DNA of 32,000 nucleotides. Source: Vibrio alginolyticus NBRC 15630 = ATCC 17749 (GTDB lineage Bacteria; Pseudomonadota; Gammaproteobacteria; Enterobacterales; Vibrionaceae). Numbering within the stretch: the first letter of the stretch is position 1; every line of letters begins with the position of its first letter. Location of the stretch: positions 3,240,001 to 3,272,000 of the forward strand of contig NC_022349.1 in assembly GCF_000354175.2 (NCBI RefSeq), given 5' to 3'. Of the stretch, positions 11,220 through 23,053 are shown in pieces. A program made the translations under genes and the position numbers. The notes under the pieces are model-generated. The model saw only the letters and a program-made list of their open reading frames with translations, made no database searches and was not told the origin of the DNA.

Positions 11220-12386
11220 ATGAATTTGCATGAATACCAAGCCAAACAGCTGTTTGCAGAATTCGGTTTGCCTGTGCCAGAAGGCTACGCGTGTGATACA
11301 CCACAAGAAGCTTTTGAAGCCGCAGGCCGTATCAGTACAGCCAAGAAAGTAGTTAAATGTCAGGTTCACGCTGGTGGCCGTGGTAAAGCGGGTGGCGTAG
11401 AGCTACACGATACAAAAGAAGGCGTTAAAGAGTTTGCACAGAAGTGGTTAGGTAAAAACCTAGTAACTTACCAAACAGACGCAAATGGTCAGCCAGTAAC
11501 AAAAATCCTTGTTGAAGAAGCTTCAAATATTGCGAACGAACTATACCTAGGTGCGGTAGTTGACCGTGCTAGCCGTAAGATCGTTTTCATGGCTTCTACC
11601 GAAGGTGGTGTGGAAATTGAAAAAGTTGCGGAAGAAACGCCGGAACTCATCCACAAAGCAGCAATTGACCCACTAGTAGGTCCACAAGCTTACCAAGGTC
11701 GTGAGCTAGCGTTCAAACTTGGTCTTGAAGGCGACCAAATCAAACAATTCGTTAAGATCTTTATGGGCCTTGGCACTATGTTTTCTCAGTACGATCTTGC
11801 TCTGCTAGAGATCAACCCACTTGTGATTACTGGTGAAGGCAACTTGCTATGTCTTGACGGTAAGATCAACATCGACTCAAACGCACTGTACCGTCAGCCT
11901 AAGCTTCGTGAAATGCACGATCCTTCACAAGAAGATGAGCGTGAAGCACACGCAGCTCAGTGGGAGCTGAACTACGTAGCACTAGACGGTAACGTTGGCT
12001 GTATGGTTAACGGTGCAGGCCTAGCAATGGGTACGATGGATATCGTAAACCTACACGGCGGCAAACCAGCTAACTTCTTAGATGTAGGTGGCGGCGCGAC
12101 GAAAGAGCGTGTTGCTGAAGCATTCAAGATCATCCTATCTGATGACAATGTGAAAGCGGTACTTGTTAACATCTTCGGTGGTATTGTACGTTGTGACATG
12201 ATCGCAGAAGGTATTATCGGCGCGGTTAAAGAGGTAGGCGTAAGCGTACCTGTTGTTGTTCGTCTTGAAGGCACTAACGCTGACCTAGGTCGCGAAGTTC
12301 TTGCTAATTCTGATGTTGATATCATTGCTGCTGAGTCGCTAACTGATGCTGCTCAGAAAGTTGTTGCTGCTGCGGAGGCTAAATAA
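11220..12386 (+). CDS. sucC: Succinyl-CoA synthetase beta subunit
   Basis: 388-aa product starting [20 protein letters not shown], with the ATP-grasp fold blocks. Its stop overlaps the sucD ATG (TAATG). Confidence 0.97.
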
Positions 12387-13258
12387 TGTCTGTATTAATT
12401 AACAAAGACACTAAAGTAATCTGTCAGGGGTTCACTGGTGGTCAAGGTACTTTCCACTCAGAGCAAGCTATCGCATACGGTACGCAAATGGTTGGCGGTG
12501 TGTCTCCAGGTAAAGGTGGCCAAACTCACCTAGGTCTTCCTGTATTCAACACAGTTCGTGAAGCAGTAGAAGCGACTGGTGCAACAGCGACAGTCATCTA
12601 CGTACCAGCTCCTTTCTGTAAAGATGCAATCCTAGAAGCGATTGACGCGGGTATCGAGCTAATCGTAACGATTACTGAAGGTATCCCTACTACAGATATG
12701 ATCGACGTGAAAGTGAAGCTAGAAGAAACTGGCGTTCGCATGATTGGTCCTAACTGTCCGGGCGTTATCACTCCTGATGAGTGTAAGATCGGTATCATGC
12801 CTGGTCACATCCACAAGAAAGGCAAAGTAGGTATTGTATCTCGTAGCGGTACTCTAACTTACGAAGCAGTTAAACAAACCACTGACGAAGGTTTCGGCCA
12901 GTCTACTTGTGTTGGTATCGGTGGTGACCCAATCCCGGGTTCAAACTTCATTGATATCCTAAAACTGTTCCAAGAAGACCCTGAGACAGAAGCGATCGTT
13001 ATGATCGGTGAGATCGGTGGTACTGCAGAAGAAGAAGCAGCAGCATACATTAAAGAAAATGTAACGAAGCCAGTGGTTTCTTACATTGCTGGTGTAACTG
13101 CACCTTCTGGTAAGCGTATGGGCCATGCTGGTGCGATTATCTCTGGTGGTAAAGGTACTGCTGAAGACAAATTTGCTGCACTAGAAGCGGCTGGCGTTAA
13201 AACTGTGAAATCTCTAGCAGAGATTGGCCAAGGTCTACGTGAAGTGACGGGTTGGTAA
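12386..13258 (+). CDS. sucD: Succinyl-CoA synthetase alpha subunit
   Basis: 290-aa product containing [28 protein letters not shown] and the phosphohistidine loop GHAGAII. Confidence 0.97.
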
Positions 13259-13377: not shown

Positions 13378-14163
13378 TTATGCTTTGCTTTTAATCAGCT
13401 GGCTCAGCATGAATAAGGATGTTGCGCTGATCACTACGGAAGGGCCGGCCGGTGTATCGAAGTGCCATGATAGGCTAAGCCCCATCAGTACTGCCACTGA
13501 GCCAATAATGGATGCGAACAATGCCATTTGCTCTGGTGATGAAGAGACTTTACGTGCTGTTGCTGCTGGGATAATTAGGAGCGAAGTCATGATCAACGCG
13601 CCAACGAACTTCATACCTACTGCGATTACTACACCCACCATTAGCATTAACACCAATCTAACTAAGTCTGTATTCACGCCCTCAACAGCGGCAAGTTCTT
13701 CACTAACAGTGCTAGAAAGCAGTGGGCGCCAGAAGACGTACAAACACGCACTTACCGCAACAACACCTGCGTAAATAAACATCAGATCTTGTGGAGAGAC
13801 GGCAAGTAAGTCCCCAAATAGGTAGCTCATTAAATCGACGCGCACGTTTTCCAAAAAGCTAACCGATACTAAACCGATAGAGAGTGCACTGTGTGCCAAG
13901 ATACCTAACAACGTGTCTGTAGCCACAAGTTGTTGCTTTTGCAGAGTGACAAGCAAAACGGCCAGAGCTAAACAGCAGACGAGTAGCGCAAGGTAGAGAT
14001 TTACGTTGAGCAAGAAGCCCAGCGCTAGGCCCATTAACGATGCATGAGCTAGGGTATCTCCGAAGTAAGCCATTTTACGCCAAACGACAAATGACCCAAG
14101 TGGACCGGCAATGATCGCGATACCAATACCAGCAAGAATAGAAGGTAGGAGAAACTCAATCAT
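13378..14163 (-). CDS. znuB: Zinc ABC transporter permease
   Basis: The track ORF runs to 14208. ATG at 14161-14163 gives [43 protein letters not shown], which matches the E. coli ZnuB N-terminus (261 aa). It overlaps the znuC stop by 8 nt (ATGATTGA). Confidence 0.93.
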
Positions 14164-14944
14164 GATGGTGATGTCCGTGTTTATGGTGGGAGCATGATGT
14201 CGCATCACCGCTTACTGGCGTTCCGGATAAATCGTGATGATGGTGCTCATGGTCGTGATGATAAAACGCGAGAGACTCTCTCGCTGCATTGCCAAATAGT
14301 GCGATGTAAGAAGGGTGCTGAGTAATAGTGGCAGGTGAACCTGAGCAGCAAACATGGTGATGCAGACAAATAACATCGTCCGTTTTCGCCATCACTAAAT
14401 GTAAGTCATGCGACACCATAAATACGCCACAATCAAAGCGATGACGAATGCTCTCAATTAAGTCATAGAGATCGATTTGACCTTGGATATCCACACCCTG
14501 AGCTGGTTCGTCTAATACCAACAGCTGAGGACGCTGAAGCAGAGCGCGAGCCAGTAACACTCGTTGGTTTTCACCACCGGATAAGCGATGCATATTACTA
14601 TTAAGTAAATGTTCAGCGCCAACAAGCCTTAATGCATCAATGCACTCTTGCTTACTGTATTTTCCTGCTAAATTTAGAAAGCGGGTTACATTCAATGGAA
14701 GGGAGTCATTGAGCTTCAACTTTTGAGGAACGTAACCAATTTTCAGTTTTCTTTGTCGGTTCAACTTGCCGCTAGTCGGCTTTTGAAGACCTAAGATAAC
14801 TTTGACTAACGTTGATTTTCCCGCTCCATTGGGACCAATTAGGGTAGTTATTTTGCCCTTTTCTAATTCCATACTAATGTTATCGAGAACTCTGCGGCCA
14901 TCGAACTCGACGCATAACTGCTCAAGATGGACTAAGGAAGACAT
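14156..14944 (-). CDS. znuC: Zinc ABC transporter ATP-binding protein with a His-rich C-terminal tail
   Basis: 262-aa product with Walker [10 protein letters not shown], signature LSGGENQR and Walker B LLVLDEP. The tail reads [36 protein letters not shown]. Confidence 0.95.
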
Positions 14945-15022: not shown

Positions 15023-15910
15023 ATGAAAAGAGCATTAATTCTTGCTGCCTCAGCAATGTTAACACTGCCAGCACAGGCGGTAACGGTACTGACGAGTATC
15101 AAACCTATTCAGTTGTTAGTAACAGAGCTTACTCAAGGAGTAACTTCACCAGACGTGTTATTGCAGCCTAACACATCACCCCATGACTACGCTTTGCGTC
15201 CATCGGATGTTAAAAAGGTCGCTTCGGCTGATTTGGTTATCTGGTACGGACATGATCTTGAACCGTTTCTAGAGAAAGTTGTTTCGGATAGATCGAATAC
15301 TTTGACTATTAGTCAAATTCCAAATCTAGAATTGCGTGAATTTGATAGTGAGCACAACCATGACCATGATGGGCACGATCATGGCTCACATGATCCGCAC
15401 TTTTGGCTAGGTGTAAGCCAAGCACAACAAGTGGCCAAGGCTGTTGTGAATCAACTTGTATCACTTGATCCGGAAAATGCAGCTCAATATCAAGCGAACC
15501 TCAAAAAGTTTGAACTCGAGCTAAAAGACACTGACCAACAGATAAAGCAGAAGCTGGCACCAGTAAAAAACAAAGGTTACTTTGTATTCCATGATGCTTA
15601 CGGTTATTTCGAAGATCGTTATGAACTAAATCAAATGGGGCATTTTACTGTGAGCCCAGAGCGCAAGCCAGGAGCGAAGACCTTAATTCAAATTCGTCAA
15701 AAGCTAAGTGGTGGAGATGTGGCTTGTGTATTTTCTGAACCTCAGTTTACCCCGGCTGTCGTTCAGAGCGTAATGAGAGGCAGTGACGTCGCTAAAGGCG
15801 AGCTTGACCCGTTAGGGAGTACAATTGAAGCAAAACCTGGCAGTTACTTTACTTTTCTCAACAATATGGCGAATAGTTTTGAGCAATGCTTGAACAAAAA
15901 GTCAGATTAA
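15023..15910 (+). CDS. znuA: Periplasmic zinc-binding protein of the ZnuABC transporter
   Basis: 295-aa product with a signal peptide (LTLPAQA), the cluster-9 SBP fold blocks (SPHDYALRPSD, HDPHFWL, FHDAYGYF) and the characteristic His/Asp-rich loop EHNHDHDGHDHGSHDPH. Confidence 0.94.
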   Translation: MKRALILAASAMLTLPAQAVTVLTSIKPIQLLVTELTQGVTSPDVLLQPNTSPHDYALRPSDVKKVASADLVIWYGHDLEPFLEKVVSDRSNTLTISQIPNLELREFDSEHNHDHDGHDHGSHDPHFWLGVSQAQQVAKAVVNQLVSLDPENAAQYQANLKKFELELKDTDQQIKQKLAPVKNKGYFVFHDAYGYFEDRYELNQMGHFTVSPERKPGAKTLIQIRQKLSGGDVACVFSEPQFTPAVVQSVMRGSDVAKGELDPLGSTIEAKPGSYFTFLNNMANSFEQCLNKKSD

Positions 15911-16091: not shown

Positions 16092-19000
16092 TTGATACAA
16101 AAGGTTTTCGTCTTGCTACGCCAATTAGCCCTTGCTCTGTTGGGCTTTGTCTTATCCTACCAAGCATTTGCGCTTCATAATGCAAATGCAATCTTTTACC
16201 CTTTGCCAACTCAGGCAAAGGGTACTTTTATCGCGGCTAAAAAGTTGTTCTTGGGTGAAAAGGGTGGTTTGTGGATTCATGACGTACACGGGAGAGTCCT
16301 GTTTTACGATGGTCAAACTATATTGCCTAAATCAGGTAGCTTCCTACAAACGTCGGCCAAGCAGTTGGCCTATCATAAAGGTGCTTTTTGGACCTTTATT
16401 GAAAATGAGGTCTATCGAACTTATCCAAATCAGGAGCGACGTTTAGTCTTTAGTTTAAATCCAGGCTCACAAATAAGAAAAATAGGGTCTTCAAAGAACT
16501 ATATTTGGGTGAGTGATGGCGCGCATTTCTATACCTACAATATCGACACTAGCGAGTTAAACTCTTTCTCTCTATTGCAGCTCTATCAACATAGTAATAA
16601 TAGCTACGTTTACATTAATGATGCGGTGCTAGTTGAAACGAAGTGGGCACTAGCAACGACTTCCGGCTTCTATCTTTCTGAAGGTGATAAGTTTGACCAT
16701 GTCGCTGCCTCAGGTCAAAACTACATTGAGAAAGTCTATTATTCACACACGCGAAGAGAAATTTTGATAGGTACATTGCGTGGCGCTTTAATTTTCAACA
16801 TTTACCAGCCTGATAAAGAAGTGATTAGAATTGGCGGCTCACATGTTTTGACATTCGCAGAGACAAATCAAGAGTATTGGGTGGGGACAGAGCATGGCCT
16901 TTATTTGTACTCATTTTTTTCAGGTGAGGTCACCGAAGTCGCGCCTGCAAGTTTTCTTGAGTTAGAGTTAGATAACACGAAGATTTATTCGTTGTTGAGT
17001 GACAATATGGGAGGGATGTGGATTGCGACTAACCAAGGTATTCGTTATTACTCGCTATTTAGTAAAAAATTTGAACGAGTGACCTTTAGTAGTTATGACT
17101 CACACACCCTATCAGGACGAATTCGGCAAACTATTGAAGGTCCTGATGGTGCGCTTTGGTTTGCTGATGACCGAAAGATTTATCGTTCAGGAAAGAGTGG
17201 GATTAACCAAGTCTTAGAGTTGGAGTCGCAGATCAATGAATTTGCGTTTCAAAACGGCATGCTTTGGCTTGCAACCTCAAAAGGGCTGGAAATATTTGAG
17301 CTAAATGGTCTCAACAAGATTACATTTCCTTATTTACAGGTTATGGCCGGACATGCCGTAGAGCATGTGACCGTTGATGGTGATGACCGTCTTTGGGTAT
17401 CAAGCGGATACCATCTTTACAATGTTGATACTGCTGCACAAAGCGTACGAAACTTTGGAAGTGAGTGGCTAGTAAGTCAGTATTTGCCTGCTAAGGTTAC
17501 GCGCCTATATGATACTGAAGATGCCCTATTAATAGGCACCGATCATGGCGTATACCAATACAGTAATGACAACATCCAGTTTATCCGTTTTTCAGAAAAG
17601 TTTGGTGAATCATTAGACATGACCACGGCGGTTGATGGCAGCCAGTGGTTTGCTTCATCTTATGGTGTGTTTAAAACTGATACACGAAGCGATGAAAAAC
17701 GTGTTGTTGAAATGAGTGAGCCCAACGCCAGACCTGCTTGCTTGATCAGAGACAGGCAAGGTATATGGTTAGCTTCCTCTGTCGGTTTAAGCTATTACCA
17801 CCTTTCGGGTGAGTTAGTGAAACATTACTCATCGTCATCAGGCTTAATGAACAATGAGTTCCTCCCTGGTATTTGTAGCGTTATACAGCAGACAGAAATT
17901 GGTGAGCGAGAGCTTGTTCTGGGGTCGAAGTACGGACTCGTAAAAGCAGAAGCATCCAAGCTGCTTGTATCTAATCCCCCAGAGTCTAAGTTTATTGTTA
18001 GCCAAGTTGTGCTTGAAAATGAAGTTCTGCAAGTTGGTAGTGCCGATCTGAATGGGATCACACTGCCATATGGATCTTCGCTGAGTTTTTTATTCGGTGT
18101 GATGCCAAAACCAGACAGTCAAAATTTGTACTATCGATTGAACAACGATGACCCATGGCAAACGTTAGAGGGGGGCCAACTGACACTCGAGCACCTTAGT
18201 TCCGGTGAATATCACTTGCAGGTCAGTAATGAGTCTCAAGTTGCCACTGGAGTCGTTGGTTTAGAATCTCACTTTATCGTCCTTCATCCTTGGTATCTAT
18301 CGCGATTTGCTATTTTAGGCTTTGTCGTAGCTAGTATTGCGGTCGTCGCATTACTTGTTTTCTGGCGCTCTCGCTACGTTGTACAGGCTAACCGTGATCT
18401 AGCAGCTCAAGTGACTCTCAAAACGAATCAGTTAAGACATCAAAGTAGAGTGTTGCTTACGAGCAACCAGCAATTACGTAAACAGATTCAAGTTAGAAAC
18501 CTACTCGTAGACCATGTAGCTCTATCCATAAAATCAAGCGTCGACTTTATTGTGGCGAAACTACCTATGCCTCTCGATACTGCGACGGAGGATCATTTGG
18601 CTAAAACGAATTGGCAGTTAAATGAACTCAAAAGTGTTCCAAGTGATGTAAGTGGTGGGAGTCAGAACTACAACTTGAGTCAGATAACTCAGTCAGTGGT
18701 TGATGTATGGCAAGATGACTTTGCAAAAGCGGGTATTTTGGTAGAGCTAGAAGATGAGAGCAAGCAGAGCCGGGTTGCTCTGGAAAGTTTTAATCTTGAT
18801 GTTATTTTCAATAGCATTTTTGCCAATATCATCAAGCGCTCTTTCCGAGGTCAAACGGTTAGAATTATGCTAGAAGAGGGACATGATATTGTGTCATTGA
18901 GCTTTCTTGATTACGGGACGCAATTACCTAATAAAGTCGCGACTGGGCTTCCATCTAACTTAAATCACTCTGAGTTGAGTATTGACCACCTTGCCCAACT

Positions 19001-19490
19001 AGTGACAACGAGTGGTGGTTATTTGGCTGTCTTCTCTTCTGATGCTCAAAACAAAGTCGAGATTACATGGCCATCTGCGAAGGAAAGGAGTTATCTGGAT
19101 GAACCGCAGCAAGAACTCAATCCTGTAACTATTGCAGAAGATCAAGTCACACCAGAGAAAGAGTGGTTGCAAAAAGTCTATCAATTAGTGGCAGAGCATT
19201 ACCATGATCCTGAATTTGGCACTGCGTCAGCCGCTAAAATGCTGTATATGTCTGAACGCTCTTTGCAGAGACGTTTTAAATCTGCCTCGTCAAGAACGTT
19301 AAAAGACTATGTCACAGAGGTTCGTTTGGAAACGGCGTGTGAAAAGTTATTGGCGGGTGAGAAAATCAGTGAAGTCGCCTTTAACTGTGGCTTTAATGAT
19401 CCATCTTACTTTAGCCAAAAGTTTAAGCTGCATTTTGGTTTGCCCCCTTCCAAGTTTGCTTTGACTCAAGAAAGCCAAGAAATTAACTAG
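16092..19490 (+). CDS. tfoS: Membrane-anchored one-component regulator: periplasmic propeller repeats + Y_Y_Y, one TM helix, degenerate histidine-kinase-like module, no receiver, C-terminal AraC HTH (TfoS-like)
   Basis: 1132-aa ORF. The start is TTG at 16092, with no in-frame ATG nearby and no clear RBS, so the start is uncertain. Domain calls come from motifs read in the translation (see findings). The position between znuA and feoA matches my memory of V. cholerae TfoS. The symbol is assigned on architecture plus synteny, not on an alignment. Confidence 0.6.
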   Translation: MIQKVFVLLRQLALALLGFVLSYQAFALHNANAIFYPLPTQAKGTFIAAKKLFLGEKGGLWIHDVHGRVLFYDGQTILPKSGSFLQTSAKQLAYHKGAFWTFIENEVYRTYPNQERRLVFSLNPGSQIRKIGSSKNYIWVSDGAHFYTYNIDTSELNSFSLLQLYQHSNNSYVYINDAVLVETKWALATTSGFYLSEGDKFDHVAASGQNYIEKVYYSHTRREILIGTLRGALIFNIYQPDKEVIRIGGSHVLTFAETNQEYWVGTEHGLYLYSFFSGEVTEVAPASFLELELDNTKIYSLLSDNMGGMWIATNQGIRYYSLFSKKFERVTFSSYDSHTLSGRIRQTIEGPDGALWFADDRKIYRSGKSGINQVLELESQINEFAFQNGMLWLATSKGLEIFELNGLNKITFPYLQVMAGHAVEHVTVDGDDRLWVSSGYHLYNVDTAAQSVRNFGSEWLVSQYLPAKVTRLYDTEDALLIGTDHGVYQYSNDNIQFIRFSEKFGESLDMTTAVDGSQWFASSYGVFKTDTRSDEKRVVEMSEPNARPACLIRDRQGIWLASSVGLSYYHLSGELVKHYSSSSGLMNNEFLPGICSVIQQTEIGERELVLGSKYGLVKAEASKLLVSNPPESKFIVSQVVLENEVLQVGSADLNGITLPYGSSLSFLFGVMPKPDSQNLYYRLNNDDPWQTLEGGQLTLEHLSSGEYHLQVSNESQVATGVVGLESHFIVLHPWYLSRFAILGFVVASIAVVALLVFWRSRYVVQANRDLAAQVTLKTNQLRHQSRVLLTSNQQLRKQIQVRNLLVDHVALSIKSSVDFIVAKLPMPLDTATEDHLAKTNWQLNELKSVPSDVSGGSQNYNLSQITQSVVDVWQDDFAKAGILVELEDESKQSRVALESFNLDVIFNSIFANIIKRSFRGQTVRIMLEEGHDIVSLSFLDYGTQLPNKVATGLPSNLNHSELSIDHLAQLVTTSGGYLAVFSSDAQNKVEITWPSAKERSYLDEPQQELNPVTIAEDQVTPEKEWLQKVYQLVAEHYHDPEFGTASAAKMLYMSERSLQRRFKSASSRTLKDYVTEVRLETACEKLLAGEKISEVAFNCGFNDPSYFSQKFKLHFGLPPSKFALTQESQEIN

Positions 19491-19852
19491 AAAACCTTCA
19501 TTATACGCTCCCTAGTTAATAGTTAAGATGCTGGGGAGCTGCATACAGTGCTCTATTATTGCTGCAGTTGCTAACGCAGTAAGTTTCATTGTTTCTTCAT
19601 CACATCTAGCCTACAAATCCATTCTCAACACGTAAGCACGATCACGTTCTATCTGTTAGTCGCGATGTTCATAGCAATAAGCATAAATGGCTTCAAGAGA
19701 ATGATTTACTGATAGTTGCAACAAATAAATGACAGTTGTATTGCTGTATCAAAAGAGCGTTGTTCATTTGGGTGAATGATGGCATGCGACATTCGTGAAA
19801 ACGAAAACTGTGTTGAAAAGATGGATAAGGTAAAGAAGTTTTGAAAGAGGTG

Positions 19853-19977
19853 AAAAAAATATCGTGGTATAGCCGGGGGGACTATACCACGGGTGTCAAG
19901 GACACCTTCGCTTGCTGCCGGAGTGACATGTTGCCATGCCACCTCTGGAATTTATTAGAGAGGTTGCCCTCTCGATG
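19853..19977 (-). ncRNA. tfoR: Candidate Hfq-type small RNA (TfoR-like) ending in a strong intrinsic terminator; 5' end uncertain
   Basis: On the minus strand there are four consecutive hairpins. SL1 is GAGAGG-GCAA-CCUCUC (19973-19958). SL2 spans 19948-19918 with a GCAA loop. SL3 is GGUGUC-CUU-GACACC (19906-19892). The terminator is CGUGGUAUAG-UCCCCCCGG-CUAUACCACG (19891-19863) followed by AUAUUUUUUU (to 19853). An AU-rich single-stranded linker UAAUAAAUU is present. A possible -10 TATAGT lies at 19989-19984. Strand and name are inferences. Confidence 0.45.
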
Positions 19978-20261
19978 GAGTAACTATACGAGAGGTTACT
20001 TATTTTTCTTATAAAAATAACGCCATGTTTATATGAGAAAAGCGACAACGTTTTGTTTTTTAATTAACCCACTGTTTTAATTTGCATTTTTTGTTTTCTA
20101 TCTTGGTTTGTGACATTTTTGTTTCGTTAGGTGTCATTTTTAATTGTTAATTTTGACGTAAATAACGAGAGGAAATTTACGAAGTTAACGTTTGAAAGCG
20201 TGAAAACATTTACGGAATCTTTGATTTCACACAAGGATTGAAGGGGTATAGGGGAGTAATA

Positions 20262-20300
20262 TTGGCAACCTAAACTTATTAAATAATAATATTTCTCATT
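20262..20300 (+). promoter_or_regulatory. Putative feoABC sigma70 promoter with an overlapping Fur box
   Basis: -35 TTGGCA (20262-20267), a 16-nt spacer, then -10 TAATAA (20284-20289). AATAATAATATTTCTCATT (20282-20300) matches the Fur consensus GATAATGATAATCATTATC at 12/19 by my count and covers the -10. Confidence 0.45.
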
Positions 20301-20322: not shown

Positions 20323-20550
20323 ATGAAGTTATCAGAGATTAATCCTGGCGATACGGTGACGATTCGGTTGTTAGATGGTCTTTCATCAGATATCAGAAAG
20401 AAACTCATGGTAATGGGGCTGCTTCCCAATACAGAAGTCAAAGTGATTCGACGTGCGCCAATGGGCGATCCTTTACAAGTCGAAGTCCGTGGTGTGTCTG
20501 TCGCATTGCGAGAAACAATTGCTCAGAAAATTGAAGTGGAGCGAGTGTAA
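20323..20550 (+). CDS. feoA: Ferrous iron transport protein A
   Basis: 75-aa SH3-like FeoA (GDTVTIRLL...LMVMGLLPNTEVKVIRRAPMGDPLQV). AAGGG RBS is present. The stop overlaps the feoB ATG (TAATG). Confidence 0.93.
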   Translation: MKLSEINPGDTVTIRLLDGLSSDIRKKLMVMGLLPNTEVKVIRRAPMGDPLQVEVRGVSVALRETIAQKIEVERV

Positions 20551-22826
20551 TGCAATATCAAGTGCTAACCGTAGGTAACCCTAATAGTGGTAAAACGACG
20601 CTATTTAATGGTTTAACTGGCGCAAAACAGCAAGTTGGTAACTGGGCAGGCGTCACGGTTGAAAAGAAAACGGGACAATTCAAGCATGCTGGGGATGAGT
20701 TTTTGCTCACTGACCTTCCGGGTATTTACTCATTAGACAGTGGTAATGATAGTAATAGTATTGATGAATCCATCGCATCGCGTGCGGTTCTAACTCATCC
20801 TGCTGATCTCATTATTAACGTGGTGGATGCTACAAGTTTAGAGCGCAGCTTATATATGACGCTGCAACTTCGCGAACTTGGTCGCCCTATGATTGTTGTC
20901 CTCAACAAGATGGATGCGCTAAAGCGTGAACGTCAGATGATTAACGTTGCAGAGCTTGAGAAAACGTTAGGTTGTCCGGTTGTCAGTTTATCTGCAACCA
21001 ATAAAACTCAAGTGGCAGAGTTTAAAGAAAAGCTTCATAAATCCATCGTTCAAGGAGTGCCACTTAAAGAATTGTCTTTGCATTACGGTGAGAAGATGGA
21101 GTCGGCAATTCAAACGGTTTCCGCACTTTTTAACGACCAAAACGTCGCTCATCGTGCACTAGCGATTCGTGCGCTTGAAAAAGACACAATGGTGCTCAAT
21201 AGTCTTTCTGATATTGATAGAAGCAAAGTCTTGGAAGTCATTACGACGTTAGATTTGGATATCGATTTGCATGTCGCGGATACTAAGTACACGCATCTGC
21301 ATGAACAGTGTAAAAAAGTTCGCCGAAGCGAAGGCAAGTTAAGTCGTAGTGTGACTGAAAGACTCGACCAGTTTATTTTGAACAAGTGGATTGGAATTCC
21401 TTTCTTCTTTGTTGTTATGTACCTGATGTTTATGTTCTCGATTAACATCGGTAGTGCATTTATCGACTTTTTTGACATTGGTGCGGGCGCATTGTTGGTT
21501 GATGGTGGACATCACTTGTTAGATGGTCACCTACCTGTTTGGCTGGTTACGGTGATTGCTGATGGTTTAGGCGGCGGTATTCAAACGGTTGCTACCTTCA
21601 TTCCGGTTATCGCGTGTTTGTACCTGTTCCTAGCGGTACTTGAGAGCTCAGGTTACATGGCTCGTGCTGCGTTCGTGCTCGATAAAGTCATGCAGAAAAT
21701 CGGCCTACCGGGCAAAGCATTTGTACCGTTGGTTCTTGGTTTTGGCTGTAACGTACCATCAATCATGGCGACTCGTACTCTAGACCAAGAACGTGAGCGT
21801 AAACTGGCTGCATCTATGGCGCCATTTATGTCATGTGGTGCTCGTCTGCCTGTATACGCGCTATTCGCTGCGGCATTCTTCCCAGGTTCTGGCCAGAACA
21901 TTGTATTCGCACTTTACCTACTTGGTATTGTGGCAGCGATCTTCACAGGTCTTTTCCTTAAGCACACGCTTTACCCAGGTAGCAGCGATAGCCTAGTGAT
22001 GGAAATGCCAGATTACGAGCTTCCGACGCTACAAAACGTGGTGATCAAAACTTGGCAAAAGCTAAAGCGCTTTGTACTTGGTGCAGGTAAAACCATCGTT
22101 ATCGTTGTTGCTATTCTGAGTTTCTTCAACTCATTGGGTACTGATGGCAGTTTTGGTAATGAAGACAGCGAAAACTCGGTGCTTTCTAAAGCTGCGCAAG
22201 TTGTAACTCCAGTATTCGCGCCAATCGGTGTTCAAGAAGATAACTGGCCAGCGACGGTTGGTATCATTACCGGTATCTTCGCAAAAGAGGCGGTAGTTGG
22301 TACGCTTAACAGTCTATACACCACGCCAAGTGACGGTGAAGACGCAGAATTTGATCTAATGGGCAGCCTAGAAGAGGCAGTAATGAGTATCCCTGAAAAC
22401 TTAGCCGGTTTGAGCTACTCAGATCCACTAGGCATTGAAGTGGGTGACTTAACTGACTCAAATGCCGTTGCCGAAGAACAAGAAGTCGATGCTTCTATCT
22501 TCGGTAACATTAAATCGCAGTTTGCTTCTGGCAATGCCGCATTTGCTTACCTAATCTTTATCCTACTGTACACTCCTTGTGTGGCGGCGATGGGTGCTTA
22601 CGTACGTGAGTTTGGTCATAAGTTCGCACGCTTTATCGCGGTTTGGACAATGGGCTTGGCTTACCTATGTGCGACGTTCTACAACCAATTGACGCATTTC
22701 GCAGATAGCCCAGTGACAAGTGGTATTTGGATGGCTGTGATCGTTGCTATCTTCTTTGGTACCTACCGCGTGTTCAAACAAGTTGGTAAGAAACAAAACG
22801 GTGCATTAGAGGCGCAAGTAGCATGA
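20550..22826 (+). CDS. feoB: Ferrous iron transporter B (N-terminal G-domain plus polytopic permease)
   Basis: 758-aa product with G1 GNPNSGKTT, G3 DLPG and G4 NKMD, followed by a multi-TM gate region (GFGCNVPSIMATR, LLYTPCVAAMG). Confidence 0.97.
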   Translation: MQYQVLTVGNPNSGKTTLFNGLTGAKQQVGNWAGVTVEKKTGQFKHAGDEFLLTDLPGIYSLDSGNDSNSIDESIASRAVLTHPADLIINVVDATSLERSLYMTLQLRELGRPMIVVLNKMDALKRERQMINVAELEKTLGCPVVSLSATNKTQVAEFKEKLHKSIVQGVPLKELSLHYGEKMESAIQTVSALFNDQNVAHRALAIRALEKDTMVLNSLSDIDRSKVLEVITTLDLDIDLHVADTKYTHLHEQCKKVRRSEGKLSRSVTERLDQFILNKWIGIPFFFVVMYLMFMFSINIGSAFIDFFDIGAGALLVDGGHHLLDGHLPVWLVTVIADGLGGGIQTVATFIPVIACLYLFLAVLESSGYMARAAFVLDKVMQKIGLPGKAFVPLVLGFGCNVPSIMATRTLDQERERKLAASMAPFMSCGARLPVYALFAAAFFPGSGQNIVFALYLLGIVAAIFTGLFLKHTLYPGSSDSLVMEMPDYELPTLQNVVIKTWQKLKRFVLGAGKTIVIVVAILSFFNSLGTDGSFGNEDSENSVLSKAAQVVTPVFAPIGVQEDNWPATVGIITGIFAKEAVVGTLNSLYTTPSDGEDAEFDLMGSLEEAVMSIPENLAGLSYSDPLGIEVGDLTDSNAVAEEQEVDASIFGNIKSQFASGNAAFAYLIFILLYTPCVAAMGAYVREFGHKFARFIAVWTMGLAYLCATFYNQLTHFADSPVTSGIWMAVIVAIFFGTYRVFKQVGKKQNGALEAQVA

Positions 22827-23053
22827 TTTTAAAAGAGCTTTATCAATACATTGCAGACAAAGGAACCGTCTCCCAGTCAGATCTGGCTAAACAGTTTGGG
22901 ATGAGTGAAGATGGCGCCGACGCGATGTTAAACGTGTGGATTAAGAAGGGCAAAATTAGCCGCCTAGTCGACACTAATAAAGCTCATGACGTGACTCGTG
23001 TTCGCTACTCAGTGACTAAACAAGATGGTTTGTCTTTGACAGTCACCATGTAG
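22823..23053 (+). CDS. feoC: FeoC-like winged-helix protein (Cys-less)
   Basis: 76-aa ORF overlapping the feoB stop (ATGA). It has the winged-helix pattern LKELYQYIADKGTVSQSDLAKQFGMSEDGADAMLNVWIKKGKI. There is no cysteine anywhere in the product. Confidence 0.8.
   Translation: MILKELYQYIADKGTVSQSDLAKQFGMSEDGADAMLNVWIKKGKISRLVDTNKAHDVTRVRYSVTKQDGLSLTVTM

Follow-up and report, generated by a model that had tools for sequence, protein, structure and literature searches.

In the window analysed here, a stretch of 32,000 nucleotides from Vibrio alginolyticus NBRC 15630 = ATCC 17749 (contig NC_022349.1, forward-strand positions 3,240,001 to 3,272,000; coordinates below are counted from its first letter), one long gene very probably is tfoS, an orthologue of VC2080 of V. 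cholerae and VP0854 of V. parahaemolyticus that encodes a single-pass transmembrane (TM) transcription regulator. About 240 residues of its product, between the membrane and the DNA-binding helix-turn-helix (HTH), are a folded, selectively kept and catalytically dead histidine-kinase core. TfoS is the switch that leads from chitin to natural transformation in Vibrio, and is relevant to horizontal gene transfer in marine pathogens. As the orthologue of a characterised protein the V. alginolyticus gene is already known, and naming it is routine annotation; the remnant of the kinase core is a useful structural addition, since the accessible papers treat the stretch from membrane to HTH as one without two-component signature domains.

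The cytoplasmic part of the protein begins with a juxtamembrane signalling helix (aa 759-802) and a hairpin (aa 803-847) that resembles the dimerization and histidine phosphotransfer (DHp) domain of kinases and carries no phospho-acceptor histidine (together 18366..18632, plus strand). These are followed by a degenerate catalytic and ATP-binding (CA) domain of the HATPase_c or Bergerat fold (18663..19076, plus strand, aa 858-995) and by a disordered linker (19077..19151, plus strand, aa 996-1020), at the point where the proteins of hybrid two-component systems (HTCS) have their receiver domain (REC). Residue numbers refer throughout to the 1132-residue version of the protein, which starts at TTG 16092. 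In a model of aa 736-1132, with a mean predicted local distance difference test score (pLDDT) of 84, helices span 737-823 and 830-846, an alpha/beta sandwich spans 858-995 and the AraC domain follows, with aa 1000-1016 of the linker disordered (pLDDT <50). When this model was compared with the PDB by Foldseek, the best 50 matches listed were all histidine-kinase-type DHp+CA cores or CA domains, with ZraS at 3.6e-11 followed by YycG/WalK, DivL, RetS, HK853 and CusS; the CA domain of VanS on its own was matched with a TMt of 0.82 and a root-mean-square deviation of 3.1.

Sequence profiles point to the same fold. A profile of the core, built from aa 762-1000 in 27 family members, matched the PDB sequences of ZraS (3.5e-6), ThkA (5.7e-5 and 2.7e-4) and further kinases, and against 1.84 billion proteins it retrieved 34 TfoS-family proteins at E<=1e-10 and 949 proteins at E<=1e-3. 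Ten proteins from the tail of this list were scanned with Pfam, and six of them turned out to be canonical or near-canonical HTCS-type proteins that had been matched at the co-linear position; in one (P0180, 1302 aa) the order is Reg_prop, Y_Y_Y, HisKA (791-854), HATPase_c (901-1009), Response_reg (1054-1164) and HTH_18. Aligned by hhalign to six such kinase cores, the TfoS core gave a probability of 99.0% and an E of 2.4e-18 over 232 columns. The initial annotation had called this segment shaped like HATPase_c with eroded boxes, and the Foldseek match (4e-11), the ZraS profile match and the hhalign result all agree with that description. Pfam HisKA, HATPase_c and Response_reg did not match the tfoS product at E<=1, single-sequence scans with Pfam and NCBIfam found neither kinase nor receiver in it, and HATPase_c was detected in only 3 of the 27 family members when these were scanned singly (best E 0.005). 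The conclusion that sequence models alone would give, that no remnant of a kinase exists, is contradicted by the Foldseek, profile and hhalign matches.

To locate the catalytic motifs we used HMMER and hhalign to map them onto the columns of 54 diverse Vibrio sequences. The histidine of the HTCS motif SHELRTPL aligns to L811, a column in which none of the 54 sequences has His (Q7 D7 N7 R5 S4...). The initial annotation had singled out H808, in LLVDHVALSIKSS at aa 804-816, as a histidine that was kept; this residue lies three positions upstream of the phospho-histidine column, is His in 17 of the 54 sequences and is Asn in V. cholerae, and we reject it as a relic phospho-acceptor because it is off the H-box column and unconserved. 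A second candidate, H783 (nt 18438-18440, in LKTNQLRHQSR), is nearly invariant and sits in the signalling helix; considered as an alternative acceptor, it was set aside: it stands some 28 residues ahead of the H-box column, and HTCS proteins have Gln at the aligned position. The helix that carries it has the near-invariant pattern LKTNQLRHQSRxLLxxNQQLRKQ (conservation 0.75 over aa 768-807) and corresponds in the alignment to the signalling helix ahead of the H box in HTCS proteins; its aa 768-802 are conserved to a degree that only the HTH matches within the protein.

The ATP-binding boxes are degenerate in different degrees. For the N box (FNSIFANIIKRS, aa 906-917), NLLSNAIK of the kinases aligns to SIFANIIK, so that the position of the Mg-binding Asn is S908 (S16 T16 L8), while N907, one residue out of register from it, is near-invariant (52/54) and K915 is retained. 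In the G1 box (FLDYGTQLP, aa 938-946), DxGxG is reduced to D940-x-G942-x-Q944 with loss of the second glycine; the G2 box GxGxGL has become HSELSI, and the ATP lid is shortened and gap-rich (aa 949-957). The tail of the CA domain survives as S974-G975-G976...N987...W993-P994. The initial annotation was therefore right that the G2 motif GxGLG is lost, and had overlooked the surviving SGG...N...WP tail. Its claim that there is no receiver domain also stands, with no Response_reg match and, in the model, only about 25 disordered residues of linker between the CA-like domain and the HTH; neither intact N, G1 and G2 boxes nor a receiver, the findings it had named as counting against it, came out of the HMM search and the motif mapping.

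Several residues of the core are invariant (W873, D903, R916, Q921, G942, G976 and W993) or near-invariant (F900, N901, L902, N907, D940, S974, G975 and N987). Against five Harveyi-clade orthologues, the nonsynonymous divergence (dN) was 0.11-0.29 for the core, 0.09-0.33 for the periplasmic sensor and 0.39-1.55 for the linker (aa 996-1020), the fastest-evolving segment; the core thus changes at about the rate of the sensor and 3-5 times more slowly than the linker. These domain comparisons use dN alone, since synonymous sites are saturated (pS >= 0.7) and dN/dS is not properly computable. Judged from these sequences, the kinase-like core is not drifting and appears to be under purifying selection similar to that on the sensor.

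The identity of the protein is supported over its full length. The top hit in the database, with 99% identity, is a cluster from V. alginolyticus (P0001, 715 members, 1125 aa), the V. parahaemolyticus homologues are 82% identical to the ORF product and co-linear with it from end to end, and JGI lists several relatives under the name 'AraC family chitin signaling transcriptional activator'. Missing from the first lists was the V. cholerae protein (P0311; 1316 member sequences, 1114 aa), which came up when the V. cincinnatiensis homologue served as the query of another protein search; it aligns end to end (1-1121 vs 1-1114) with 39% identity, 60% positives and 804 bits. Its residue 1058, in the HTH domain, is the Glu that the published E1058G allele of TfoS calls for, and we therefore take P0311 to be the protein studied as TfoS; D1072 of V. 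alginolyticus aligns with this E1058, the site of the high-affinity allele. The gene order sucD-znuB-znuC-znuA-tfoS-tfoR-feoA-feoB is identical in V. cholerae, and in a contig scan of 80 loci from other Vibrio (V. cholerae, V. parahaemolyticus and V. alginolyticus were not among them) the small RNA (sRNA) gene tfoR lies downstream of the tfoS homologue on the opposite strand in 76, with three of the other four ending at a contig edge. The initial annotation had proposed the match to TfoS, and both the alignment and the gene order bear it out; VC2080, the name it gave, is the published locus number (PMC3903286), and the position between znuA and feoA agrees with the V. cholerae locus.

The ORF itself covers 16092..19490 of the plus strand (1132 codons from TTG) and, from the ORF list and translation, is by far the longest in the region. 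It had been described in the initial annotation together with ten propeller-type motifs, a Y_Y_Y-like stretch and AraC motifs, and every quoted peptide is present at the residues assigned to it. The start at TTG 16092, taken over in that annotation, should be revised: annotated homologues begin at TTG 16113 (MLRQLALA...), seven codons further in, with AAGG 8 nt upstream, and LLRQ/LLRH is the N-terminal start at all related loci as well. The tfoS coding sequence is accordingly listed as 16113..19490 including the stop (plus strand), which gives 1125 aa from TTG 16113 and 1132 aa from TTG 16092.

The remaining domains follow the HTCS plan. An N-terminal hydrophobic signal or anchor (16125..16172, plus strand, aa 12-27, LALALLGFVLSYQAFA) precedes the periplasmic sensor (16173..18296, plus strand, aa 28-735), with tandem beta-propellers and a C-terminal immunoglobulin (Ig)-like domain of the Y_Y_Y type. 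An AlphaFold2 model of aa 28-735, based on 54 homologues, reached pLDDT 88 and a predicted template modelling score (pTM) of 0.82, and Foldseek matched it to the periplasmic domain of the heparin-sensing HTCS protein BT4663 (4a2l, E 4.3e-34, TMq 0.74, ~790 columns), to BT3049 (3v9f, TMq 0.72), to BT4673 (E ~5e-33, but with a TM-score of 0.43) and then to PorZ. Pfam Reg_prop matches the tfoS product at 4.7e-9; Y_Y_Y does not match it at E<=1 and weakly matches the family members P0132 and P0139. The predicted fold confirms the layout of tandem propellers plus Ig-like domain, including the Y_Y_Y-like stretch (aa 678-711) that the initial annotation had pointed out. A single TM helix (18297..18365, plus strand, aa 736-758) had been placed there before, and it fits the hydrophobic peak, the most hydrophobic Kyte-Doolittle 19-mer beginning at aa 739; in the model it runs into the long helix that follows. 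At the C-terminus, the AraC/XylS-type DNA-binding domain (19152..19466, plus strand, aa 1021-1125) is, as had been claimed, recognised by Pfam as HTH_18 (1.1e-21, aa 1048-1122) and HTH_AraC (4.1e-6). The only NCBIfam matches are AraC-type and confined to aa 1014-1128, and the model has seven helices with pLDDT >90.

The sRNA gene adjacent to tfoS is tfoR (19853..19951, minus strand), identified by Rfam RF02100 at full length with 110.2 bits (gathering threshold 70) and an E of 3.3e-28; a terminator scan located its intrinsic terminator at 19891-19863, with a T-run behind it. It lies 363 nt downstream of tfoS on the opposite strand, so that the two genes are convergent and the tfoR promoter faces feoA. 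The initial annotation had expected an adjacent sRNA, which is indeed tfoR, and had not recognised the convergent orientation with its feoA-facing promoter. An alignment of 71 distinct Vibrio tfoR upstream regions delimits several conserved blocks there. The hexamer TATAGT (19983..19988, minus strand), which all 64 distinct sequences share, that of V. cholerae among them, is a putative -10-like element of the tfoR promoter. Two direct repeats 22 bp apart (20011..20047, minus strand; TGTCGCTTTTCTCAT at 20047-20033 and TGGCGTTATTTTTAT at 20025-20011), separated from TATAGT by an A/T-rich spacer, are more than 90% conserved across Vibrio and are found in V. cholerae as well. The published V. cholerae construct PtfoR-deltaCBS retains both repeats, its 5' primer BBC4082 annealing about 35 nt upstream of them, and for this reason we assign the repeats to TfoS, as its candidate binding site, and place the ChiS site further upstream. 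A candidate ChiS-binding region (20150..20195, minus strand, with aaacgttaac at 20193-20184 and acgtcaaaa at 20159-20151) was placed by position and motif enrichment: it is the positional equivalent of the V. cholerae segment that is removed in PtfoR-deltaCBS and whose deletion abolishes ChiS binding, and among 60 Vibrio upstream regions 50 contain CGTCAA and 47 contain CGTTAA, compared with 4 and 1 after shuffling.

Between TATAGT and the annotated 5' end of tfoR lies a hairpin (19958..19973, minus strand) that is conserved in structure and variable in sequence. The Rfam 5' end at 19951 is 32 nt downstream of TATAGT, with 37 nt in V. cholerae and a range of 31-42, and this interval folds as a hairpin in all 64 distinct Vibrio sequences, which have 38 distinct 5' arms. 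Its mean minimum free energy is -8.9, vs -3.4 for shuffles (mean z -2.9, z < -1 in 63 of 64), and a control of the same length 60 nt further upstream averaged -0.5. MAFFT and RNAalifold returned no consensus pairs, because loop lengths vary and the stems are not registered; the hairpin was assessed by folding each sequence against its shuffles in place of an alignment. Were transcription to begin near 19976, some 7 nt past TATAGT, the direct repeats would lie at -71 to -35, the usual geometry for an AraC/XylS dimer. The hairpin suggests either that the primary tfoR transcript is longer, with a 5' stem-loop absent from RF02100 and from the published 102-nt form, or that its 5' end is processed.

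Published work on TfoS provides the setting for a mechanism. TfoS is needed for chitin-induced transformation in V. cholerae, binds and activates the tfoR promoter (PtfoR), and responds to chitin oligosaccharides when placed in E. coli; in its published layout a TM helix joins the periplasmic domain to an AraC HTH in the cytoplasm (PMC3903286, Fig. 1A). Its periplasmic domain has been described as structurally related to HTCS proteins, and Yamamoto et al., as cited there, found TfoS to be without two-component-system signature domains (PMC7564644). ChiS occupies a site on PtfoR upstream of TfoS, brings the locus to the membrane and contacts TfoS, and ChiS is bypassed when TfoS is overexpressed or has high affinity (PMC11856585; bioRxiv 2026). 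On the ligand-binding mode of the propeller, the initial annotation agrees with the accessible literature. We found no paper in the searchable literature in which TfoS is mentioned alongside HATPase, DHp, pseudokinase or AlphaFold, and we regard the vestigial kinase fold, the Photobacterium homologue described below and the 5' hairpin of tfoR as modest new leads, not as established discoveries.

By analogy with these systems, the periplasmic double propeller and Ig-like domain of the V. alginolyticus protein would sense chitin oligosaccharides, as has been shown in V. cholerae and V. parahaemolyticus, and the signal would cross the membrane through the TM helix and the near-invariant coiled-coil signalling helix to the DHp-like hairpin and the CA-like domain. 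With the phospho-acceptor His, the Mg-binding Asn, the G2 box, the lid and the receiver lost, and G1 lost in part, a phosphorelay cannot carry the signal. Most likely, the vestigial kinase core is a mechanical scaffold that forms a dimer and sets two AraC domains in place; still tethered to the membrane, these would bind the pair of direct repeats ahead of tfoR and activate this convergent gene. ChiS would bind further upstream, bring the promoter to the membrane and assist TfoS, as in V. cholerae, and TfoR would then activate translation of tfoX and with it the competence and chitin programme. In HTCS proteins the receiver inhibits the DNA-binding domain (PMC11253607), and this inhibition is impossible in TfoS because the receiver is missing; by analogy, the loss of a silencing REC may be offset by the low DNA affinity and the dependence on ChiS that are reported for V. 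cholerae TfoS (bioRxiv 2026), a rationale for why TfoS may lean on both.

A number of points weigh against this reading. The scaffold role is our own extrapolation, and the retention of N907, D940, G942, R916, Q921 and S974-G975-G976 leaves room for a binding function; the structures are predictions of monomers, and the distance between the repeats and the transcription start of tfoR is ambiguous. On the side of identity, the V. cholerae protein is only 39% identical, and the function of TfoS was demonstrated in the relatives V. cholerae and V. parahaemolyticus only (PMC3903286, PMC7564644). The deletion mutant of VP0854 in V. parahaemolyticus is non-transformable, and the phenotype there departs from that of V. 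cholerae, with GlcNAc6 and not GlcNAc2 as inducer and a growth defect on chitin (PMC7564644). Given this divergence, the details of ligand and regulon in V. alginolyticus may differ as well.

Among other explanations, the one that fares best is that the CA-like domain still takes up ATP, ADP or some other nucleotide as a small ligand, or contacts a partner such as ChiS, and acts as an allosteric gate on DNA binding. We consider it unlikely, though the residues that line or adjoin the pocket (N907, D940, G942, K915/R916, Q921, S974-G975-G976 and N987) are invariant or nearly so in the 54 Vibrio sequences, purifying selection acts on the core as strongly as on the sensor, and ChiS and TfoS interact directly (PMC11856585). 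Yet the G2 box and the lid are deleted, S/T/L908 stands in place of the Mg-binding Asn and the second G1 glycine is lost. Chi37, a ChiS whose TM and periplasmic parts have been exchanged, no longer interacts with TfoS (PMC11856585), which points away from a cytoplasmic contact, and the cytoplasmic portion of TfoS is constitutively active when fused to GST (PMC3903286).

A working phosphorelay, in which TfoS would be an ordinary hybrid kinase with divergent motifs that is perhaps phosphorylated in trans by ChiS, is very improbable. The DHp+CA fold is intact, H783 in the juxtamembrane helix is nearly invariant, and the activity of TfoS depends on ChiS according to Yamamoto et al., as cited in PMC7564644; but the H-box column (L811) is without His, H808 varies and gives way to Asn in the V. 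cholerae protein, whose function has been validated by experiment, and receiver, acceptor Asp, G2 box and lid are all missing, in keeping with the absence of Pfam HisKA, HATPase_c and Response_reg matches at E<=1. Moreover, V. cholerae ChiS acts at PtfoR by DNA binding and membrane recruitment, and overexpressed TfoS bypasses it. That the gene is instead a paralogous HTCS-like glycan regulator with another target, and not the functional TfoS of this organism, is hardly credible: related HTCS-type proteins do exist in Vibrionaceae (for example Photobacterium P0165, P0177 and P0187), and the gene in the window shares length, domain order, locus and tfoR promoter with the TfoS genes of V. cholerae and V. 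parahaemolyticus.

Going beyond the scaffold, we put forward tentatively, as a possibility that we rate below even chances, that the decayed core is a working part of the switch, either as a dimeric lever or as a pocket for a nucleotide or a partner, that Vibrionaceae keep the path from phosphorelay to mechanical signalling, and that tfoR is longer and has a 5' stem-loop. If the lever version is true, the 'scissor' movement of an HTCS-type sensor would directly set how far apart two AraC domains stand; if the path is, one and the same locus would hold an intact kinase in Photobacterium and a REC-less pseudo-kinase in Vibrio. For laboratories working on TfoS and ChiS, the gain is a set of mutable residues and domain boundaries, with an intact-kinase Photobacterium homologue as a natural comparison.

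The genes around tfoS in the window are sucD (12386-13258, plus strand), znuB and znuC (13378-14944, minus strand), znuA (15023-15910, plus strand) and feoA, feoB and feoC (20323-23053, plus strand). A GTG-initiated ORF of 78 codons (19706-19942, minus strand) overlaps tfoR and the spacer between tfoS and tfoR. Pfam matches nothing in it, and this ORF is probably spurious; its equivalent in V. cholerae may be the small hypothetical gene annotated between tfoS and feoA. The promoters of feoA and tfoR occupy a common 370-bp intergenic region. Upstream of feoA we observed a sigma-70-like promoter (20262-20290, plus strand; TTGGCA-17-AATAAT, 10 of 12 matches), divergent from tfoR and located in an A/T-rich stretch that may also hold a Fur box.

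Compared with the Bacteroides HTCS proteins (BT4663, P0180), V. alginolyticus TfoS likewise has a sensor of double propeller and Y_Y_Y domain (TM 0.74), one TM helix and an AraC HTH, and its signalling helix, DHp and CA regions are homologous to theirs and co-linear with them (hhalign 99%). Unlike them, it is without phospho-acceptor His, G2 box and lid, its N and G1 boxes are degenerate, and it has no receiver, being about 110-180 aa shorter at that point. An even more stripped-down version of the TfoS architecture appears to exist in an ENA metagenome protein (P0224, 936 aa), which has Reg_prop and an AraC HTH without a kinase-like module, and in which the TfoS core profile matches the juxtamembrane helix only (aa 754-814).

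The relatives with intact kinases that are closest to TfoS come from Photobacterium. The P. gaetbulicola protein P0177 (1270 aa; CP005974.1, L082 5001-8813) has SHELRTPL, a full HATPase_c (5e-23) and an intact G2 box, and its gene occupies the position of tfoS, in the order sucCD-znuBC-znuA-[gene]-feoB-feoC. It is co-linear with TfoS aa 20-1031 (23% identity, E 3e-64), its AraC domain is 50% identical, and it has about 112 extra residues before that domain; no tfoR was detected beside it even at E<=10. With the same slot but its kinase intact, P0177 looks like an undecayed counterpart of Vibrio TfoS, from which we infer, as the simplest account, that the latter descends from a Vibrionaceae HTCS at this locus and has lost the receiver and the kinase chemistry.

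The TfoS proteins of V. cholerae and V. parahaemolyticus are of the same length class (1114-1125 aa) and domain order as that of V. alginolyticus, occupy the same slot between znuA and tfoR/feoA, and are accompanied by a convergent tfoR with the same promoter blocks; the parts that diverge most among them are the DHp-like aa 808-847 and the lid remnant at aa 928-967. Binding to DNA while anchored in the inner membrane is a property that TfoS has in common with ChiS, ToxR, TcpP and CadC, although their sensor folds and DNA-binding domains are unrelated to those of TfoS. ChiS, which works with TfoS at PtfoR, retains kinase/phosphatase chemistry, unlike TfoS.

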